Assembly (NCBI GenBank): GCA_009841405.1
Contig: VXLV01000115.1
Coordinates: 3,630-67,629, forward strand
DNA: 64,000 nt
Direction: 5' to 3'
Source: Chloroflexota bacterium
GTDB lineage: Bacteria > Chloroflexota > Anaerolineae > Aggregatilineales > Phototrophicaceae
In this document: in pieces, positions 2,864 through 46,880 of the stretch
Layout of the letters: each line of letters begins with the position of its first letter
Numbering within the stretch: the first letter of the stretch is position 1
Translations under genes and position numbers: made by a program
The notes under the pieces: model-generated
What the model saw: only the letters and a program-made list of their open reading frames with translations
Databases searched by the model: none
Told to the model about the DNA's origin: nothing

Positions 2864-3697
2864 GTGTCAAGTCATGTTCAAGCGCACAGGCGTCAACCTG
2901 ACCGCGCTCCCGGCGTGCTGCATCGCGCAACGCCCGGCGTGGCGCCCAAGCTGTCGACGGCAGCCCGCCGCGAGCGTCGGCCGGCGCCGGCGCGCTGGCG
3001 CGTCATCAGCGGCGCGCTCCTGGCCCTGTTTGGATTGACGCTCCTGGTCTTTTTCACCAGTGACGTCTTTTATGTGAGAGCAATTCAAGTGCGCGGCAAC
3101 GATTTCATCACTCGCGAAGAGGTCTTCGCCTATTCTGAATTGGCCGACTATCACCTGTTCTGGCTTGATCCGGCGGCTGTCCGGCGCAATGTGCTGCGCG
3201 CGGCGTCCGTGGCCGATGTCTCCGTAGAAGTGGGCTGGCCGCCCGACCTGGTTACCGTGCTGGTGCAGGAACGGCAACCGGTCGCCGTCTGGTCCGATGG
3301 CGGGCAAGAGACCTGGATCGATCTGCAGGGTCGCGCCATGCCGGCGCGCGCGGAGATGCCCGGGCTCTTGCATGTAAATCTGGTCCGGGATAATAGCGAT
3401 CGACCGCTGCCCAGCGCGAGCGACTTTGACAAAGACATGGTTCTAGGCGCGCTGCGCCTGCGAGAGCTTCTGCCCGAGGGCGGACATCTCGACTTTCATC
3501 CCGTACACGGTCTGGGCTGGACCAATGACCAGGGCTGGCAGGTGTGGATGGGGACCGGCTCGGCGGCGCTGATGAACGAGAAGATCACAATATACAAAGT
3601 GCTGGTGGAAAATCTGAGCAGTCGCGCAATTGACGTTGCCGAACTGAATATAGCGAATCCCGACGCACCGTTTTACAGACTTTTGTGGGGGCTATAG
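2864..3697 (+). CDS. ftsQ: Cell division protein FtsQ/DivIB (single TM plus POTRA domain)
   Basis: Basic N-terminus, one TM helix (ISGALLALFGLTLLVFF) and a POTRA-like FYVRAIQVRGNDFITREEV segment. It sits between murB and ftsA. GTG start, exact start uncertain. Confidence 0.8.
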   Translation: MSSHVQAHRRQPDRAPGVLHRATPGVAPKLSTAARRERRPAPARWRVISGALLALFGLTLLVFFTSDVFYVRAIQVRGNDFITREEVFAYSELADYHLFWLDPAAVRRNVLRAASVADVSVEVGWPPDLVTVLVQERQPVAVWSDGGQETWIDLQGRAMPARAEMPGLLHVNLVRDNSDRPLPSASDFDKDMVLGALRLRELLPEGGHLDFHPVHGLGWTNDQGWQVWMGTGSAALMNEKITIYKVLVENLSSRAIDVAELNIANPDAPFYRLLWGL

Positions 3698-39360: not shown

Positions 39361-40509
39361 TCAGCCGGGGCGCGCGCTGACAGCGGCGAGCAGCGCGGCG
39401 CCGTAGGTCTTGCGGCGCCAGGGACCCAGCCCGCGGATGCCCTCAAGCTCAGCGGGCGAGGCAGGATTGCGGTGGGCGATTTCCCAGAGCGCGTCTTTGC
39501 TGATGATGACGTCGGATTCGACGCCGCGCGCCTTGGCCGTTTCCCGGCGCCAGCTGTGCAGCGCGCTGTAACGGTCGACGACCGCTTGCGGAATGGTCGG
39601 CTGCGCCGGCGGGAGGTATTCGACGCGGCTGGCCTGGCCGTGCCGCACCGCCTGGATGAATTCGTCGCCGCTCTGGCGGATCAGCCAGGCGGGCAAGCCG
39701 CGCAGGTCATAGAGCTGCTTGAGCGTCCGCGGCGGCGACTTGACCAGGCGCAGCAGGGTCTTGTTGGTGATGAGCTGATGCGAGGGACGGTCGACCGATT
39801 GCGCCAGTTCATCGCGCAGGATGTAAAGCTCGCGCAGGATGGCGATCTGCTGCCCGTTGAGCGCGTTGGGGCGGCAGAGCGCCCAGTAGCCTTCGGGGTC
39901 GAATTCGTCCGACTTTAGTTCGAAGCGCGTGATATCGGCGAAGTATTCGCGCGCTTCTTCGAGGCGGTCGGCGGCTTCCAGCTCGGCGTACAACATATCG
40001 CGCAGCGCCAGCAAGTGGCAGGTATCCATCTGGGCGTAGCGGCGATAGCCCTCGGGCAGGGGCCGGCGCGCCCAATCGTCGGTCTGGTGCTTCTTGGCGT
40101 GATGCACGCCGAGCAAGTCTTTCAGCATGTGGCTCAAGCCGATGCGCGGATAACCGCAGACGCGCGCGGCCGCCATCGTATCGAAGACGTTGGCGACATC
40201 AAAGTCGAAGTCGCGCTTTAGACATATCAGATCGTACTCGGCGGCGTGAAAGACCTTCTCGATGGCGGGATCGGCCAGGACGGGCGCGAGCGCGCTGATA
40301 TCGGCGATGGCGAGCGGGTCGATAAGCAGGTCTTCGCGCGGCGTCGAGAATTGGATGAGGCAGGTGCGGCCACGGTAGGCGTGCATGCTGTTGGACTCGG
40401 TATCGCAGGCGATGCGCGCAACGGCGCCCAGGCGCTCCATCGCGGCGTCCAGGGCGGCGGCGGTTTCGATGTATGCGGCGGGGGCAATTGCGGGCGTTTT
40501 CAGGGGCAT
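39361..40509 (-). CDS. rnd: Ribonuclease D (DEDD 3'-5' exonuclease plus HRDC domain)
   Basis: IACDTESNSMHAYRGRTCLIQFST (ExoI), KVFHAAEYDLICL (ExoII), YAQMDTCHLL (ExoIII) and a C-terminal HRDC-like region. Confidence 0.88.
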   Translation of the reverse strand: MPLKTPAIAPAAYIETAAALDAAMERLGAVARIACDTESNSMHAYRGRTCLIQFSTPREDLLIDPLAIADISALAPVLADPAIEKVFHAAEYDLICLKRDFDFDVANVFDTMAAARVCGYPRIGLSHMLKDLLGVHHAKKHQTDDWARRPLPEGYRRYAQMDTCHLLALRDMLYAELEAADRLEEAREYFADITRFELKSDEFDPEGYWALCRPNALNGQQIAILRELYILRDELAQSVDRPSHQLITNKTLLRLVKSPPRTLKQLYDLRGLPAWLIRQSGDEFIQAVRHGQASRVEYLPPAQPTIPQAVVDRYSALHSWRRETAKARGVESDVIISKDALWEIAHRNPASPAELEGIRGLGPWRRKTYGAALLAAVSARPG

Positions 40510-40541
40510 GTCGGCCTATCGGACACTTTACAGGAGGTTTA

Positions 40542-40568
40542 ACCACAGAGAACACAGAGAACACAGAG
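40542..40568. repeat. 9-nt tandem repeat array (3 units: ACCACAGAG AACACAGAG AACACAGAG)
   Basis: Read directly from the sequence. Intergenic, between the corA stop and the rnd start. Confidence 0.9.
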
Positions 40569-40639
40569 ATATTCTTGGAGGTATCGTCGGCGTTGTCATA
40601 TCAGCAAGTTCATTATCTTCGAAGGATGCGTTGGCGGGC

Positions 40640-41557
40640 TTACAGCCAGTCGCGGCGGCGGAACAGGGCGAGCATCAGCAGGGCAATGGCGAGCATTATT
40701 CCGGCTGTGATTATAAAGGCGTGCGGATTATCGGCAAAGGGAAGAACGATGTTCATGCCGTAAATGCTCGATATCAGCGTCAGCGGCAGCATGATGACGG
40801 AGATGACGGTCAGGATGCGCATGACTTCGTTGATGCGGTAGCTGGCGAGGGCGTCGGCGGTATCGGCGAAGCTGTTGATGATTTCGAAATTCTCATCGGC
40901 GATATCGCGCAGCTTGGCGAGATGATCGACGACATCGCCGAAGTACTCCTCCATGTGCTCGGGCAAGAAGGCGTGCTCGCAGGATTCGAGTTGCTGCACG
41001 ACCGGGATTTGGCCGCGGATGATGCGGCGAAGCGAGATGATGTCGCGGCGCAGCAAGGCGATTTCCTGGATGACGCGGCGGGCGTCCGATTCAAAGAGAT
41101 GGTCTTCGATGGCGTGGACGCGCTGATCGACCTTGTTCAGGATGGGAAAGACGTAGTCGACCAAACGGTCGATGAGGGCGTGCAGGGCCTGGGTGGCGCC
41201 ACGCCCGAGCAAGCCGTTGCGTTCGTGCTCGTCCAGCTGGCAGGCTTCGAATGCGGCGGTCAGCGGTTTCAGGGCGCCATCGTGCACGGTGATCACGTAG
41301 TCGGGCCCGAGGAAGAAATCGACCTCGCTGGGGCGGGAGAGCTGGTCGCGGGCGTCCCAGCGCGGGAAGTGCATGACGAGGAAGAGGTACTCGTCGTCCT
41401 GGTCGAGCTTGGGGCGTTCGATGCGGCTGCGGATGTCTTCGAGGTGGAGCGGGTGGAAGTGCGGGAAGCGGCGATGCAGGGCTTCGACATCGGCGGAGGA
41501 AGGGTGGACGATGTCGATCCAGGTCGTGCCGTCGTGGCTGAGGCTGCGCGTGGTCAT
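40640..41557 (-). CDS. corA: Magnesium/cobalt transporter CorA
   Basis: C-terminal YGMN motif (SSIYGMNIVLPF) with two TM helices and an N-terminal soluble domain. I chose the start at 41557 (MTTRSLSHDGTTWIDIV). The ORF-track start at 41920 would read through the repeat arrays. Confidence 0.9.
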   Translation of the reverse strand: MTTRSLSHDGTTWIDIVHPSSADVEALHRRFPHFHPLHLEDIRSRIERPKLDQDDEYLFLVMHFPRWDARDQLSRPSEVDFFLGPDYVITVHDGALKPLTAAFEACQLDEHERNGLLGRGATQALHALIDRLVDYVFPILNKVDQRVHAIEDHLFESDARRVIQEIALLRRDIISLRRIIRGQIPVVQQLESCEHAFLPEHMEEYFGDVVDHLAKLRDIADENFEIINSFADTADALASYRINEVMRILTVISVIMLPLTLISSIYGMNIVLPFADNPHAFIITAGIMLAIALLMLALFRRRDWL

Positions 41558-41570
41558 GGGGGGTATTTTA

Positions 41571-41597
41571 GCCACAGAGGCACAGAGGGCACAGAGG
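41571..41597. repeat. 9-nt tandem repeat array (GCCACAGAG GGCACAGAG GGCACAGAG)
   Basis: Read directly. Lies in the divergent corA / cytochrome c intergenic region. Confidence 0.9.
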
Positions 41598-41604
41598 ATT
41601 TTCC

Positions 41605-41639
41605 ACCACAAAGGGCACAAAGACACGAAGGGTGCAAAG
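41605..41639. repeat. 9-nt tandem repeat array, AAG flavour (ACCACAAAG GGCACAAAG ACACGAAG GGTGCAAAG)
   Basis: Read directly. It is 7 nt after the previous array. Its head TTTTCCACCACAAAGGGCAC recurs at 42279. Confidence 0.85.
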
Positions 41640-41766
41640 AAAAACACTTCTGTAAGATTTTGGCCGCAAGCATTGGCTATATTTGCAAGTGAGTCGGTCC
41701 AGGCGTGGCGCGCTCCATGTCGGTCGCGAGCGCTGAAAATCGGCAGGGCTAGACGAGGATCCAGGT

Positions 41767-42228
41767 ATGAAGAAGCGAGGCCGGCTGCGCGCGATGAAGA
41801 AGCGTCAGCGAATTGTAATCCTGGCTGTAATCGCGTGGGTTGCGTTTGGGGTGGTGGCGGGGCTGGCGATTGTGTCGCTGACCGCGGAGGAGAGCGATGT
41901 GGTGACGGTAGCGGTCGCACTGCCGGCTACGTATTCGCAAGAAGCGCAGGCGGGCGAAGGGTTGTTCAAGGCGAATTGCCAGGCTTGCCACGGGCCGAAC
42001 GCGTCGGGCACGAAGCTGGGGCCGCCGCTGATTCATGACATCTATAATCCGGGCCATCACTCTGACGAGGCGTTTTATCTGGCGGCGGCGACGGGCGTGC
42101 GGGCGCATCACTGGCCGTATGGGGATATGCCGGCTCAGCCGCAGGTGACGCGCGAGGAGGTGGGGCTGATCATTCGCTTCGTGCGGGAGTTGCAGGAGGC
42201 GAATGGGATTGTGCGCAAGGCGTACTAG
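41767..42228 (+). CDS. Membrane-anchored mono-heme cytochrome c
   Basis: N-terminal TM helix (IVILAVIAWVAFGVVAGLAIV) and heme motif CQACHG, with a downstream Met (YGDMPAQ) as the likely sixth ligand. Confidence 0.8.
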   Translation: MKKRGRLRAMKKRQRIVILAVIAWVAFGVVAGLAIVSLTAEESDVVTVAVALPATYSQEAQAGEGLFKANCQACHGPNASGTKLGPPLIHDIYNPGHHSDEAFYLAAATGVRAHHWPYGDMPAQPQVTREEVGLIIRFVRELQEANGIVRKAY

Positions 42229-42251
42229 GTGTTGTGGGGCCCCACCCCAAA

Positions 42252-42283
42252 CCCCTCCCCCAAGATAAGGGACGGGCTTTTTT
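42252..42283 (+). terminator. Possible intrinsic terminator after the cytochrome c gene
   Basis: CCCCTCCC / GGGACGGG arms (one C-C mismatch), a 9-nt loop, then C plus six T. It is part of a degenerate C/G-run element. Confidence 0.45.
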
Positions 42284-42284
42284 C

Positions 42285-42311
42285 ACCACAAAGGGCACGA
42301 AGGGCACGAAG
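42285..42311. repeat. 9-nt tandem repeat array (ACCACAAAG GGCACGAAG GGCACGAAG)
   Basis: Read directly. Lies at the left edge of the low-GC island, 9 nt from the stop of the ATPase-TOPRIM gene. Confidence 0.9.
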
Positions 42312-42319
42312 ATTGGTGG

Positions 42320-44161
42320 TCAGGGGGATGCGGGCTGGTTGGCTTCTTTAAGAATGCACTTAATGAGTTTAACGATTTCGTGGAAGTGGCTGGGGTTGTC
42401 GGCGAGGATGCGCTTGGTGATTTCTTCGCCGTACTGTACCTTATTGCCCTTGTAGCTGATTCCAGCCAAGTCTTGAAACAATCTGTCAAGTAGCTTCGCA
42501 CCGTCGACAGATTTCAGCCAGTCAAGATCGTCAAAGTCCGCCCCTTCCTGCTCACAAATCCAGGACTCGACTGACTTTGCAGTCTGGTCTTTCGCCTTAT
42601 CTTCCGCGGCGTCGCGGTTGAGAATAACTGCCAGGTACTCTGGGACAATTAAGTAGCTCTCGTAGTTCTGTCGAGGCAAGAACTTTCTCGTATTGGTTTC
42701 TTCAAAGTCATCATTTTGCAGGTCGCCATCAAAGACGAAAGCCAGCACTGACGGCAATATACCGACGCTGCCGGATAGCCGCGCGTATATCTGCTCGATT
42801 AGCGCGCCACGTCTCTTGTCGTTAAAGTCACCCGTATGGACCACTTCTATGATGTCAACGCCTCCGCCCAGCCCGCCGTTGAGATCCATTATTCTTTTGA
42901 AGCAAATCCGGTCAGTCTTGCCTTCGACCCAGATGACGGCATCCATGCCGAAGATGTCGGAACGACTGGATCCGATTTGGCGGAGCATATCTTCCAGTTC
43001 GGCGTTGTCGTTGACGTTTACACTCTTTACACTGCTTACCATATTCTCGCGTGTTACGAGAAGAATGCGTTTTTCCTTGACCGACATGATGGCAGTAGGC
43101 GAATGCGTGGCGATGATGTATTGGTGGTGGTCATGTTCCTGGAAGATTTCGAGCAACTTGCGGATAGCGCCCGGATGGAGGAATGAGTTTGGCTCGTCGA
43201 TAAGGAGGACACGTGGCTGCGATTCATTGTAGAAAAGAACGACATAGAGCATGGCAAGGATTTGACCGACGCCAGTTCCACATTTGTCTTGCGATACGCC
43301 TAGGTCATTTCGCTCGTAGTGTGCATCAATATAATCAAGCATAAGCGATACAGTTCCTTGGCCGTCCGATACGGTTCGCAAGTCAAGAATTTCGGGTATT
43401 ACTCGCTGCACGGCCTGGAGATACTTATGAAACCTACCACGATTGCGACTCTGAATCGTATCAAGCACCTGACCGAGATTCGATGCGTTATTATTAAGTA
43501 CTAGATCGGGGATTTCGGGCGCAGCGGGCAATACTGGACGTACAGCTTGAAATCGGTAAATTGAATTAGGAACTCGATCTTGCCAGCCAAGCCAATAGTC
43601 AACGACTGCATGTCCATTTCTATGTAGCTCGGGCTCTTCTGCTGCGACTTCCTTCATACGAATTCGAAAGCTCAGAGCGTCTTCAGTCGAAAATCTAGTT
43701 AACGCCGGGTCCAGATCAGCAATACTCAAAACCGTTTCGCTGTCTCGCGATCCACCGCTACCATACGTAAGTCTCAACCCAAATGCACCATCGAAAAACC
43801 TGTCTATGTACTCGCGAAATTGCCCAGAGAATTTTGGGTGAAGTGGAATAAAGAAATCTGTCTCATCTAAACGCACATTGTGCAAGCTGGCCACTAGGTT
43901 TTGCATAAGGTGCTTCTCTGACCAACCGTATTCAATCTGATAATTTATACGACCAAGAACCTGGCTGTTTGAGATACGCGACGGTAACGTTTTCTCACTC
44001 CGATGCACTTGTCCATTCACACCAGGTGTCAACGCATCCAAAAGTGCCGTTTTGCCAGCGTTGTTTTTTCCCACAACGAAGTTTATCCCCGGACCCAACT
44101 CAAATTCCGGCGTCTCGTAGAAGCAAACGTAGTTGTTCAGCTTGACTTTCGTAATTCGCAT
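42320..44161 (-). CDS. ABC/AAA15-type ATPase fused to a TOPRIM-like nuclease domain (OLD-family or fused-PARIS-like candidate defence protein)
   Basis: Walker A GKNNAGKT (aa 31-38), signature-like SQDKCGTGVGQILAML (290-305), Walker B RVLLIDEP (317-324), H-loop ATHSP (351-355), TOPRIM Glu in VIWVEGKTD (409-417) and DxD in FVFDGDLQ (475-482). The gene is visibly AT-richer than its neighbours. Confidence 0.8.
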   Translation of the reverse strand: MRITKVKLNNYVCFYETPEFELGPGINFVVGKNNAGKTALLDALTPGVNGQVHRSEKTLPSRISNSQVLGRINYQIEYGWSEKHLMQNLVASLHNVRLDETDFFIPLHPKFSGQFREYIDRFFDGAFGLRLTYGSGGSRDSETVLSIADLDPALTRFSTEDALSFRIRMKEVAAEEPELHRNGHAVVDYWLGWQDRVPNSIYRFQAVRPVLPAAPEIPDLVLNNNASNLGQVLDTIQSRNRGRFHKYLQAVQRVIPEILDLRTVSDGQGTVSLMLDYIDAHYERNDLGVSQDKCGTGVGQILAMLYVVLFYNESQPRVLLIDEPNSFLHPGAIRKLLEIFQEHDHHQYIIATHSPTAIMSVKEKRILLVTRENMVSSVKSVNVNDNAELEDMLRQIGSSRSDIFGMDAVIWVEGKTDRICFKRIMDLNGGLGGGVDIIEVVHTGDFNDKRRGALIEQIYARLSGSVGILPSVLAFVFDGDLQNDDFEETNTRKFLPRQNYESYLIVPEYLAVILNRDAAEDKAKDQTAKSVESWICEQEGADFDDLDWLKSVDGAKLLDRLFQDLAGISYKGNKVQYGEEITKRILADNPSHFHEIVKLIKCILKEANQPASP

Positions 44162-44347
44162 GACGATTCCTCGCTCAGCGCTTCAACCCGCAGCATTATA
44201 CGATACAATCCAGCGCGGCTCGCGTATGGAATCCCAAAAACATTTCACTTGTATCCCCCGCTTCGATTGTGATATATTTAACTATCGAAAAGTCGATGGC
44301 TCTGTTACGCTGAAAATCCGCTAGAATCACGCGGCAGTCCTGTTGAA

Positions 44348-44959
44348 ATGGAAGGCGCTATGGCGACAGCAGAATCCACAAATCCAACCGCGCTTAGCGC
44401 ACCGGTGGCGCGCGCTGCGGCCAGGCCCAGCATCCAGGTGGCCGCGCCCAGCCGGCGCGAATTCCTCTACTATATCTGGGGCGCGTCGATGGCCTTGCTG
44501 CTTGGGCAGACTTCGGCGGGCCTCATCTGGTTCGCTTTCCCGCGCTTCAAGGAAGGCGAGTTCGGCGGCACTTTCGCCTTCAACCCCGAGGAGTTGCCGG
44601 GCGCGGGCGCGGCGCCGGTGACCGTGCCTTCCGGGCGCTTTCACATTTCGCACACCCCGGAAGGCATGCGCGCGCTCTATCAGGTTTGCACGCATCTGGG
44701 CTGTTTGCCCAAGTGGGTGCCGACGAACTTCCGCTTTGAATGTCCCTGCCATGGCTCGAAGTTTCAGTTGAACGGCGAATGGATCGAAGGGCCGGCGCCG
44801 CGCCATCTGGATCGTTTCATCGCCACGGTGACTTACGCCGATGGCGAGACGGTCGAAACGCCGCCCGACGGCGGGGCGATTCCGCTGGACCCGGAGCGCG
44901 AAATCACCAGCATTCAGATTGATACCGGCGCGCGCATCGTCGGCGAATTGCACCCCTAG
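44348..44959 (+). CDS. Rieske [2Fe-2S] subunit of a cytochrome bc/b6f-type complex
   Basis: Cluster boxes CTHLGC and CPCHGS, with a Tat-like N-terminus (SRREFLYYIWGASMALLLG). Confidence 0.9.
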   Translation: MEGAMATAESTNPTALSAPVARAAARPSIQVAAPSRREFLYYIWGASMALLLGQTSAGLIWFAFPRFKEGEFGGTFAFNPEELPGAGAAPVTVPSGRFHISHTPEGMRALYQVCTHLGCLPKWVPTNFRFECPCHGSKFQLNGEWIEGPAPRHLDRFIATVTYADGETVETPPDGGAIPLDPEREITSIQIDTGARIVGELHP

Positions 44960-44987
44960 CGCGGATGAAATCTCACGAGGAGTTTCC

Positions 44988-46880
44988 ATGAGCATCCTCC
45001 CCTTCCCGTCCTTCCTGGATGACGTCAAGGAAAAGGGTTTCAAGAAGGCGGTGTTCGAGGGCATCGACGACTCGGTCGAGCGCCTGACCGCCGGCTTGAA
45101 TGTGCAGGACTTGCGCGAAGCCTTTCGCGGGGAAAGCGCGAGCCGCCGCCCGAATCCGCGCTTGACGCCGCATGCGGACGGTTTCTGGCTGCATATGCGC
45201 CCGTCTTACTTCAACCGTGATGTCACCGGGATGTATCCGACATTCCGGTTGGGCTGGCTTTCTTCCTATTTTGTCTTCTTCGAGACGATCACGGGCATTT
45301 TGCTGATGCTCTGGTACACGCCGTCGCCGGAGATCGCTTATGGCGATATGCTGACGATTTTGAGCAATGTGCCGCTCGGCCAGCTGATGCGCGACATGCA
45401 CCGGTTGGGCGCCGAATTCATGGTGGCGGTAGTGGCGCTGCACATGATGCGAACGTGGATCACGGGCAGTTACAAGAAGCCGCGACAGTTCACCTGGTTC
45501 AGCGGCTTGCTTTTGCTGGTGATTACCGGCTTTTTGAGTTTTTCCGGTTATTTGCTGCCCTGGGATCAGCTGTCGCTGTGGGCGGTGACGATCGGCGCTT
45601 CGATGGCCGAGGCGACGCCGGTGGTTGGCGACCAGGTCAATCTGCTGCTGCGGGGCGCGCCGGAGCTGGGCGCGAACGGTCTGCTGCGCTTTTATCTGCT
45701 GCATGTGCTGGCGCTGCCAGCGCTGCTATTTGTGTTCTTTGGCGTGCACTATTACAAGGTGGTCATCCACGGGCACAGCCTGCCGCCGCAGAAGGAGAAT
45801 ATCGGCGAGGATTCGGCCAAGCGCGTGCCGCTGGACAAACGCGTCTACTTCATTCCTGACATGCTGACTTACGAGATGTTCTGGCTGGGCGCGACCACTT
45901 TCATCATCACGGTGCTGTGCATCTGGTTCTATCACGCGCCGCTGGAGAATCACGCTGACCCGCAGGTGACGCCGCTGGGCACGACCGCGCCCTGGTACTT
46001 CCTGTGGATTCAGGGCGCGCTTAAGCTGGGCGACAAGTTTTTCTGGGGCGTGGCTTTCCCGACGATCGCGCTGGGCGGGCTGGCGATGCTGCCCTACCTG
46101 GACGTAACGCCCAGTCGGCGCTTCGCGCATCGCCGCTTCATGCTGACGATCGCCATGCTGCTGGTGTCGGCGACCACGGTGCTCAGTTATATGGGCTTGG
46201 CGAAGTTCGCCGTGCAGACATCGGCCGAGACCGAGATTGTACATGAGCTGACCTTTGAGCCGGCGCACAGCAAGGTCGGCACTGGGCGGACGATACCCTT
46301 TGACCAGATGATCGTCGGCGCGTACACGACTGCGCAAATGCATCATTTCGACGACATGACGACCAACGATATGATCGCTCAGATCAACGCCGAGACGGCT
46401 GCCAATGGTCAGTTTGACCAGATGATTCAGGAGTTGAAGGACCAGCACCTTAGCGCGAACCAACTGCCGCTGCGCTTCCGCAGCGTACCCGCTGACGAGG
46501 CGCCGAAGCTGATGCAAGTTATGGAGGAGTTCGCCCATCATCTGGAGGCGGCGCCGGACGAGTTGCCCAATGTTTGGGGCGCGTTGGTCATCACCGACAA
46601 TCAGGCAAGTTTGAAGCGCCTGGACTGGGTCGTGAGTTGGGATACGGTTCTGATTGAAGGCGGCAACGTGCAACTGGACGAGGCGGGCGAGCCGATCCTG
46701 GTCTACGCCACCGAGATGGTCGAGGTGACTGACAGCGAGGGCAATCCGGTTGTGGGCGATGATGGCGAAGCGCTTGTGGAAGAAGTTCCCGTGCTGGATG
46801 ACGCCGGCAACCCGGTCCCGGCGCGGCGAATCTATAGCGACCATCTCTTCATTCACCAGGCATCGGCGTACTTTGATTAG
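44988..46880 (+). CDS. Cytochrome b (b6-like core fused to subunit-IV-like part) with a ~220-aa soluble C-terminal extension
   Basis: Heme-ligand His in HRLGAEFMVAVVALHMM and FYLLHVLALPALLFVFFGVHYY, GYLLPWDQLSLWA motif and PEWY-like APWYFLW. The ATG at 44988 has a GAGGA 8 nt upstream. Confidence 0.85.
   Translation: MSILPFPSFLDDVKEKGFKKAVFEGIDDSVERLTAGLNVQDLREAFRGESASRRPNPRLTPHADGFWLHMRPSYFNRDVTGMYPTFRLGWLSSYFVFFETITGILLMLWYTPSPEIAYGDMLTILSNVPLGQLMRDMHRLGAEFMVAVVALHMMRTWITGSYKKPRQFTWFSGLLLLVITGFLSFSGYLLPWDQLSLWAVTIGASMAEATPVVGDQVNLLLRGAPELGANGLLRFYLLHVLALPALLFVFFGVHYYKVVIHGHSLPPQKENIGEDSAKRVPLDKRVYFIPDMLTYEMFWLGATTFIITVLCIWFYHAPLENHADPQVTPLGTTAPWYFLWIQGALKLGDKFFWGVAFPTIALGGLAMLPYLDVTPSRRFAHRRFMLTIAMLLVSATTVLSYMGLAKFAVQTSAETEIVHELTFEPAHSKVGTGRTIPFDQMIVGAYTTAQMHHFDDMTTNDMIAQINAETAANGQFDQMIQELKDQHLSANQLPLRFRSVPADEAPKLMQVMEEFAHHLEAAPDELPNVWGALVITDNQASLKRLDWVVSWDTVLIEGGNVQLDEAGEPILVYATEMVEVTDSEGNPVVGDDGEALVEEVPVLDDAGNPVPARRIYSDHLFIHQASAYFD

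Follow-up and report, generated by a model that had tools for sequence, protein, structure and literature searches.

A 64,000-nucleotide stretch of DNA from a Chloroflexota bacterium of the Phototrophicaceae (positions 3,630 to 67,629 of contig VXLV01000115.1, assembly GCA_009841405.1), hereafter called the window, raises a simple question. What is the product of the single GC-poor gene that lies on the minus strand between a cytochrome c (cyt c) gene and the genes encoding Rieske and cytochrome b (cyt b) proteins, and how did it get there? A preliminary description of segment 42229-44347, made from the sequence alone, had proposed that the gene encodes a fusion of an ABC ATPase and a TOPRIM nuclease, either a stand-alone OLD-family protein, a fused PARIS-like system, or an unclassified variant, acquired as an island. 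We consider it likely that the gene encodes a single-polypeptide OLD-family candidate anti-phage enzyme and that it is one interchangeable cargo of a hotspot.

The open reading frame (ORF) list places a complete coding sequence of 613 amino acids (aa) at 42320..44161 on the minus strand, with its stop codon at 42320-42322. Both this ORF and all the motif positions given in the preliminary description are correct. Full-length homologues can be aligned from residue 1, which shows the 613-aa reading to be correct. The N-terminal ∼385 aa match ABC/SMC-type ATPases (AAA_21, 3e-18; AAA_15, 2e-15; AAA_23, 2e-9). The N-terminal lobe (aa 1-58; 43988..44161, minus strand), which is recognized by matches to AAA_15, AAA_23, and SMC_N, contains the Walker A motif GKNNAGKT (aa 31-38, including G31, K37, and T38), of which G31, N33, G36, and K37 are invariant in the 63 family members that we aligned. 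The C-terminal lobe (aa 200-384; 43010..43564, minus strand), delimited by the AAA_21 match and by residue conservation, contains R208, a signature-like segment (S290-L305) with the sequence CGTGVGQ (G295/G297/Q300), Walker B RVLLIDEP (aa 317-324, with D322-E323), the D-loop H329, and the H-loop ATHSP (aa 351-355, with H353). D322, E323, and H329 are kept in 63/63 members and H353 in 62/63. This lobe can be aligned to TsOLD, GajA, PtuA, AriA, and P2 Old, and in 50 of the 63 members it is matched by DUF2813, which we take to be the Pfam family of YbjD. R208 is invariant in the family and may be an Arg variant of the OLD Q-loop position (PMC7049728). Between the two lobes, an insert (aa 59-199; 43565..43987, minus strand) occupies the position of the OLD "dimerization domain", i.e. 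between Walker A and signature, and is modelled as mixed α/β with lower confidence (pLDDT 56-80).

The C-terminal region has little similarity to known profiles when taken on its own. An hmmscan of aa 359-613 against Pfam and PADLOC returned matches at E = 0.004-0.02 only, confined to the first TOPRIM strand. Pfam scans of 63 full-length homologues identified the OLD-like TOPRIM domain PF20469 in 37 (best E 3e-5), DUF3226 in 18, and DUF4435 in one. An AlphaFold model of aa 385-613, computed from a 33-sequence alignment, has a mean predicted local distance difference test score (pLDDT) of 89 and a predicted template modelling score (pTM) of 0.86. In a fold search with this domain model, the top eight PDB matches (prob 0.90-1.0; lower ranks are noise) are all OLD or AriB TOPRIM domains (6nk8, 6njx, 8ux9_A, 8v46_D, 6p74), and the C-terminal regions of Class 2 OLD proteins from B. 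pseudomallei and Xanthomonas match it with template modelling (TM) scores of 0.46-0.57 (prob 1.0). When the full-length model (pLDDT 86) is used as query, complete OLD nucleases top the list (retron-Eco8 effector, TsOLD 6p74, and GajA). Finally, hhalign aligns the family profile with P2 Old at 95.7% probability (E = 8.6e-9) over aa 188-446, an alignment that covers Walker B, the D-loop, the H-loop, and WVEGKTEE/LVEGKTET. Member scans, structural models, and hhalign are independent of each other and together establish the C-terminal region as a predicted OLD-type TOPRIM.

The acidic residues expected of a TOPRIM active site are all conserved. The TOPRIM core (aa 385-498; 42668..43009, minus strand), delimited by the fold search and by conservation, contains E413 and D417 in WVEGKTD (within VIWVEGKTD, aa 409-417), D478 and D480 in FDGD (within FVFDGDLQ, aa 475-482), and R497. 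In the model, a core at aa ∼405-495 is followed by six confidently predicted helices (aa 499-607), which form a C-terminal helical domain (aa 499-613; 42323..42667, minus strand) starting with the invariant E501 and holding K574. In TsOLD, metal A is bound by E377/D431/D433, metal B by D381/S478/E480, and R487 is the basic residue that stabilizes the transition state; in BpOLD the corresponding sets are E400/D455/D457, E404/T506/E508, and K562 (PMC7049728). The equivalents of the metal A ligands are E413 (63/63), D478 (63/63), and position 480, which is D in 33 members and E in 30. Those of metal B, assigned by linear order, are position 417 (D/E in 63/63), E501 (63/63), and position 499 (N/M/T). 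The catalytic set proposed in the preliminary description is thus supported both by a structural OLD/TOPRIM match for aa 385-613 and by conserved acids. Invariance of the TOPRIM acids and of R497 in 63/63 diverse members implies strong purifying selection on the catalytic site. It also argues against the quite improbable alternative that the ATPase and its insert alone mediate defence or toxicity, with a dispensable or non-catalytic TOPRIM, for which the precedent is YbjD, whose phenotypes require the ATPase and not the TOPRIM domain (PMC13261556). The DUF2813 matches in the ATPase C-lobe also speak for this alternative.

Where does this protein stand among the OLD classes? It is best filed as a Class 1 OLD by context, because it has no conserved partner gene (PMC10568477, PMC12392090), with a nuclease region resembling that of Class 2. 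Like the Class 1 proteins P2 Old, TsOLD from Thermus scotoductus, Vc OLD from Vibrio cholerae, and E. coli YbjD, it is encoded by a single gene and combines an N-terminal ABC ATPase, an insert between Walker A and signature, and a D-loop His with a TOPRIM Glu, an acid at Glu+4, a Dx(D/E) motif, and a later Glu. It differs from Class 1 proteins in several respects: at 613 aa it is slightly above the 500-600 aa used to delimit the class (PMC12392090), its TOPRIM is too divergent for the Pfam threshold, its insert is hypervariable and predicted to be α/β, and, unlike TsOLD, it has a C-terminal helical domain (PMC7049728). In addition, Class 1 genes have been described as lying away from other defence genes (PMC10568477); the present gene is part of a defence hotspot. 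A TOPRIM followed by a helical domain is shared with Class 2 OLD/GajA (GajA of B. cereus among them), whose C-terminal regions contain such a domain (PMC7049728) and provide the best structural matches (6nk8, 6njx); unlike Class 2, the window protein has no adjoining UvrD-like GajB and its HMM matches are partial (∼75 bits). A Class 3 OLD, i.e. a retron effector, would differ by a neighbouring reverse transcriptase and an msr/msd non-coding RNA; at the window locus, the neighbours include no reverse transcriptase and there is no Rfam match.

With PARIS (AriA/AriB, Class 4), the window protein shares the logic of an ABC ATPase and a TOPRIM nuclease. In a fused system of this type, an AriA-like scaffold and an AriB-like TOPRIM would sense phage anti-restriction proteins and cleave tRNA. 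Such fused AriA-AriB genes have been reported (PMC12392090), AriB chains rank second and third in the domain fold search (8ux9_A, 8.7e-4; 8v46_D, 1.1e-3), and PADLOC AriA models match the ATPase at 3e-21. We nevertheless regard a fused PARIS, which the preliminary description had kept as an option, as quite unlikely. PARIS typically consists of two genes; DUF4435 was found in a single member (1/63, E = 0.002) versus 37/63 for the OLD-like TOPRIM; the TM score to AriB is 0.37 versus 0.48-0.52 to Class 2 OLD C-terminal regions; the AriA alignments are limited to the generic ABC C-lobe; and hhalign ties the family to P2 Old via the TOPRIM Glu motif. The stand-alone OLD option is the one that is supported.

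The family is large and goes essentially unnamed in databases. A word-indexed homologue search gave >1,100 matches, and the best 120 are mostly ∼600-aa proteins named only "AAA family ATPase". An exhaustive search with a profile of the C-terminal domain gave 1,981 representatives (50% identity, E ≤ 1e-3), 898 of them at E ≤ 1e-30, and in almost all of the 1,981 this domain is the C terminus of a ∼600-aa protein. Family members are 593-673 aa long and span Chloroflexota, Cyanobacteria, Myxococcota, and Bacteroidota. Neither Pfam nor NCBIfam nor PADLOC (2023) has a dedicated model that matched at family level. In PADLOC, scores peak at ∼77 bits (Old, HEC-01A, GajA, AriA), and the highest one in NCBIfam is 70 bits, where the cut-off is 420. 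The best PDB sequence matches are TsOLD (6p74) foremost, followed by PtuA, GajA, and AriA, and the TsOLD and GajA alignments extend into the strand bearing the TOPRIM Glu.

The gene has no visible partner. Its neighbours in the window are Ccm genes, cytochromes, Rieske/cyt b, corA, RNase D, NUDIX, and uracil-DNA glycosylase (UDG) genes, among which there is no helicase, reverse transcriptase, or separate TOPRIM gene, and no Rfam match was detected in 40000-46000 at E ≤ 1. The OLD-like gene is also single in five other loci at which it occurs (L004, L005, L011, L035, L050), and in a myxobacterial, a cyanobacterial, and two Bacteroidota loci its neighbours are unrelated, and none of them encodes a UvrD-like helicase, a reverse transcriptase, or a separate TOPRIM. 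The earlier claim that there is no second gene therefore holds in the window, and no partner is conserved across the other OLD-bearing loci examined. In two loci (L089 5001-6812, Bacteroidota; L090 5001-6791), a family member lies directly downstream of nrdB-nrdA-like ribonucleotide reductase genes, a position that may be another conserved insertion slot or may reflect a link to nucleotide metabolism.

Via the Rieske protein, we fetched 80 loci from species-representative genomes; apart from one isolate, these are Chloroflexota metagenome-assembled genomes (MAGs) that bear the label Anaerolineae, Aggregatilineales, or Phototrophicaceae. Empty sites, in which corA abuts Rieske with a gap of 208-620 bp, are found in two loci of the close clade (L046, L060) and in the 15 distant loci among L062-L086 in which both flanks are retained. 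Close-clade loci have 0.3 to >8 kb between corA and Rieske. The cargo of this interval, tallied over 56 close-clade genomes, comprises Type ISP restriction-modification (R-M) genes in 21, a UvrD-family helicase that PADLOC matches best to GajB (3e-41) in 10, the OLD-like gene in eight, an AAA_13 ATPase (PDC-S06) in five, Type IIG R-M in four, Type II R-M in two, and an FRG protein (PDC-S15) and a PIN protein in one genome each. Cargo is mostly of low GC (∼0.43-0.55), and insertion sequence (IS) transposases are occasionally present in the slot. The corA/cyt c-Rieske slot is thus a recurrent defence hotspot, rather than the site of a one-off insertion. Like other chromosomal defence hotspots, it has conserved flanks, empty sites, and at least eight cargo types, nearly all of which are R-M or candidate defence genes; unlike them, it has no integrase and no satellite or prophage backbone, only occasional IS elements. 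To our knowledge, this hotspot of uncultured, poorly studied Aggregatilineales/Phototrophicaceae-type Chloroflexota has not been described before.

The presence of a GajB-like helicase among the alternative cargoes speaks for another reading, in which the OLD-like protein is an orphan or trans-acting Gabija GajA (Class 2), with its GajB either encoded elsewhere or lost, leaving a decaying gene. The helical domain is typical of Class 2, which also provides the best structural matches, and PADLOC GajA models match at 1e-21 with alignments reaching aa ∼500. However, these GajA matches score ∼75 bits, far under family level, no UvrD-like neighbour is present in the window or in 12 other loci from four phyla, and the OLD-like and GajB-like cargoes were never seen together in the 56 genomes. 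The ORF and the catalytic residues are intact in 63 members, which argues against decay. We find an orphan GajA very unlikely. The GajB-like helicase is itself a single gene of ∼690 aa just upstream of Rieske (L013, L014, L023, L027, L031); further such loci are L033, L036, L049, L055, and L056. It is curious that a stand-alone candidate defence gene of the GajB type should alternate with an OLD-like gene that also stands alone. Another peculiarity of the slot is that Type ISP R-M consists of two ORFs (∼450-520 and ∼587 aa) in most loci (e.g. L010, L019, L029, L043, L053, L061) and of a single ORF in L051 (1045 aa) and L017 (950 aa). The two-ORF arrangement is either a genuine split form or the result of recurrent frameshift inactivation.

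Composition also sets the OLD-like gene apart. Its GC content is 48.8%, compared with 61.0 ± 2.0% (minimum 56.1%) in non-overlapping 1842-nt segments of the other ∼62 kb of the window (z = -6.05), and its GC content at third codon positions (GC3) is 53.6% compared with 70-84% in eight flanking genes. These values confirm the low GC that had been inferred from hand counts and show it to be significant. GC3 is not uniform within the gene, with 46% in its 5' third and 64% in its 3' third. The locus is free of integrase, transposase, and tRNA genes, and the closest tRNA is ∼11 kb off. Syntenic homologues in four other assemblies are 43-57% identical, with a GC of 47-50% and a GC3 of 51-58%; their flanks have a GC3 of 70-85% and encode proteins 59-95% identical to those of the window (87-95% for cyt b). 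Two of these four loci also carry methyltransferase or R-M genes. Orthologues with host-like composition do not recur across relatives: the gene is at the site in 8/56 genomes, with 39-56% identity and a GC3 of 51-58%. Hence, the proposal of an acquired island stands as regards foreign composition; it does not stand as regards a single insertion, since the slot is a recurrent hotspot. An ancestral, vertically inherited gene, which the synteny of the homologues had at first suggested, is rejected by the empty sites, the alternative cargo, and the discordant mosaic alleles across the 80-locus survey. An integrative island or mobile element is not supported either, in line with the earlier observation that integrase, transposase, and terminal repeats are missing.

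The alleles themselves are strikingly discordant with their surroundings and with each other. In L011, the nearest genome by flanks (Rieske, 93%; corA, 89%), the allele is only 46% identical to that of the window. We compared the segments of the protein pairwise among the 32 closest homologues. Mean identities are 52% for the ATPase core, 51% for the TOPRIM core, and 44% for the helical tail, and drop to 14.5% (median 13%) for the insert (aa 59-199). No relative of the window's own insert was detected among the 120 best homologue matches. Furthermore, identity in one segment hardly predicts identity in another (Spearman 0.04-0.34). P0003, for example, resembles P0016 in the core (78%) and the insert (71%) with a tail at 37%, and resembles P0006 in the TOPRIM core (87%) and the tail (78%) with a core at 50% and an insert at 20%. 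Such a pattern points to recombination at the level of domains and to an insert that turns over rapidly, as would fit an arms-race surface. It is possible, although we advance this only tentatively, that the family is a distinct class of modular, recombining immune receptor-nucleases with a swappable insert for sensing phages or evading inhibitors; in such a case, ATPase core plus insert, TOPRIM core, and helical tail would be exchanged independently via an integrase-free hotspot.

The insert region is also the lowest-GC portion of the gene, and the 5' half of the gene is poorly annotated. A sequence identical to ours is present in a second MAG (GCA_034428605.1, contig DAOUHH010000066.1), in which the gene is called from Met274 only (340 aa), losing the Walker A half. 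A spurious 38-aa gene (L001 9726-9842) is annotated in the skipped 5' part (window 43340-44161, aa 1-273), and five database homologues (P0008, P0009, P0036, P0050, P0060) likewise start at aa ∼190-280. Gene callers thus seem to have repeatedly truncated the low-GC, hypervariable 5' half of this family.

A role outside defence, i.e. a housekeeping or cell-biology ATPase-nuclease acting in DNA repair, in a Cran1-like cell cycle function, or in connection with respiration, could be argued from an archaeal OLD-family ATPase with an essential non-defence role (PMC12796447), from the position of the gene between respiratory genes, and from the recurrence of homologues at this position in several genomes, but is highly improbable for a gene that is at the site in 8/56 related genomes only (with R-M, other defence genes, or nothing elsewhere), that has foreign composition, mosaic alleles, and a divergence ∼5-fold above that of flanking proteins, and whose neighbours are wholly different in other phyla.

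Several points nonetheless weigh against an anti-phage OLD nuclease. Architecture alone leaves function unfixed, since the role of the archaeal ATPase lies outside defence (PMC12796447) and YbjD acts independently of its TOPRIM domain (PMC13261556). On the 613-aa protein, Pfam PF20469 reaches only E = 0.008, which is sub-gathering, over aa 407-429 only, and a profile of aa 385-613 built from 33 sequences has no match in PDB sequences. The E-values of the domain fold search are modest (∼1e-3), with TM scores of ∼0.5. The third metal B ligand, which is S/T in TsOLD and BpOLD, is N/M/T in the family, and the candidate stabilizing bases, R497 (63/63) and K574 (60/63), are assigned by their position in the linear sequence. 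As for the former, Vc OLD likewise has an Asn at the S/T metal B position (PMC12392090); as for the latter, K574 could take the role of BpOLD K562. The source organism is known as a MAG only. Last, the family is essentially absent from phages: tblastn against phages gave one weak partial match (28% identity over 21% of the protein), and a fold search against a viral structure set gave no significant match. With these results, a phage or prophage origin is unsupported, and genomic context is what ties the family to phage-host conflict. Set against these points, nothing observed conflicts with existing knowledge of OLD nucleases, the gene is intact and seems to circulate horizontally, there are experimental precedents for defence by a single OLD gene in Vc OLD (PMC12392090), P2 Old (PMC12445682), and YbjD (PMC13261556), and an OLD-family candidate anti-phage enzyme encoded by an interchangeable cargo gene remains our preferred explanation.

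The junctions define the limits of this cargo. On the right, a block upstream of Rieske (44228..44347, plus strand), defined by alignment of 13 loci with varied or no cargo, forms the boundary of the variable slot. Segment 42229-44347 is thus indeed variable, but its right end lies at ∼44227, since 44228-44347 is conserved in all relatives. Within this block, TTGTGATATATTTAAC (44267-44282) is invariant in all 13 loci, empty sites included. The start codon of Rieske follows at a distance of ∼65-80 bp, and this invariant sequence, which resembles an extended -10, is probably the promoter from which Rieske and cytochrome b are transcribed as an operon. The adjoining 5' region of the OLD-like gene (44162..44227, minus strand) is shared only with two OLD-bearing loci (L011 and L025). 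On the minus strand, a Shine-Dalgarno sequence, GAGGAA (44167-44172), precedes the ATG by 5 nt, and a TATAAT hexamer (44195-44200) marks a probable promoter of the gene as judged from its sequence. A promoter scan of this 5' region called no full sigma-70 site, and promoter and terminator scans gave no excess over shuffled expectation.

On the left, conservation ends at the cyt c stop codon. The convergent spacer between cyt c and the OLD-like gene (42229..42319) contains a hairpin with a T-run (42252-42283), followed by a 9-nt tandem repeat (42287-42313). The hairpin folds in the expected way, yet no better than shuffled sequences (z = -0.95), and we make no claim of a terminator after cyt c. 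The repeat had been taken as the left border of an island, which is not what we find. In the window, CACRRAGRR 9-mers (two to three copies, plus strand) occur only at 40544-40570 (upstream of RNase D), 41573-41640 (upstream of corA), and 42287-42313 (downstream of cyt c), which are successive intergenic regions, with six matches versus 0.01 expected. They follow cyt c or precede corA in many relatives regardless of cargo, and occur occasionally elsewhere. Therefore, the 9-mer is a lineage-specific intergenic repeat of the flank, and a terminal repeat or att-like site was rejected.

Two further features of the neighbourhood vary. The cyt c gene (41767-42228, plus strand, 153 aa) is absent from distant relatives, adjoins either corA or Rieske, and has cargo on either side depending on the genome; it behaves like a part of the variable region itself. 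Its product is 59-75% identical between genomes with neighbour proteins that are 80-95% identical. Downstream of UDG there are Uma2-family genes (PF05685, restriction-endonuclease-like), one in the window contig (∼36.4-37.0 kb; L001 15393-15962) and two each in L002 (8982-10396) and L004 (13028-14057). This variation in copy number suggests that another small variable spot may lie ∼5 kb from the hotspot.

How might such an enzyme work? The following steps are modelled by analogy with P2 Old, Vc OLD, and GajA. The gene is one of several cargoes that replace each other in the hotspot; with a ribosome-binding site and a probable promoter of its own, it would yield a protein that oligomerizes via its ATPase and insert and is inactive in uninfected cells. 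A phage-derived cue would then lead to ATP binding or hydrolysis that licenses the TOPRIM site, with recognition of the trigger or escape from inhibitors most likely falling to the surface of the hypervariable, recombining insert. Metal A would be bound by E413, D478, and D480, metal B by D417 and E501, and R497 and/or K574 would be the stabilizing base. The active site may nick or cut nucleic acid, either phage or host DNA or tRNA, thereby stopping phage replication. Both kinds of target are known among relatives: DNA is nicked by Vc OLD (PMC12392090) and by GajA, which ATP inhibits (PMC10568477); tRNA is cut by AriB (PMC12409363) and by P2 Old, which acts on anticodon stems and depends on ATP hydrolysis (PMC12445682). 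Because no integrase or transposase accompanies the OLD-like gene, cargoes would most likely be exchanged when the conserved flanks undergo homologous recombination.

OLD proteins form a major defence family, in which the single-gene (Class 1) nucleases are the branch understood least; we know of functional data only for P2 Old, Vc OLD, and YbjD. Recognition of the present proteins as OLD-type adds a sizeable clade, ∼2,000 clusters at 50% identity, and the hotspot in which the window gene resides can be mined for other systems, among them the GajB-like helicase that stands alone and candidates of the AAA_13 and FRG types. The family also offers a natural experiment, in which a sensor-like insert varies and the catalytic core is fixed. 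Should its modular nature prove true, OLD nucleases would be seen to diversify in a way that has not so far been described for them, and the family would be a distinct class that combines a Class 1 context with a Class 2-type nuclease region.

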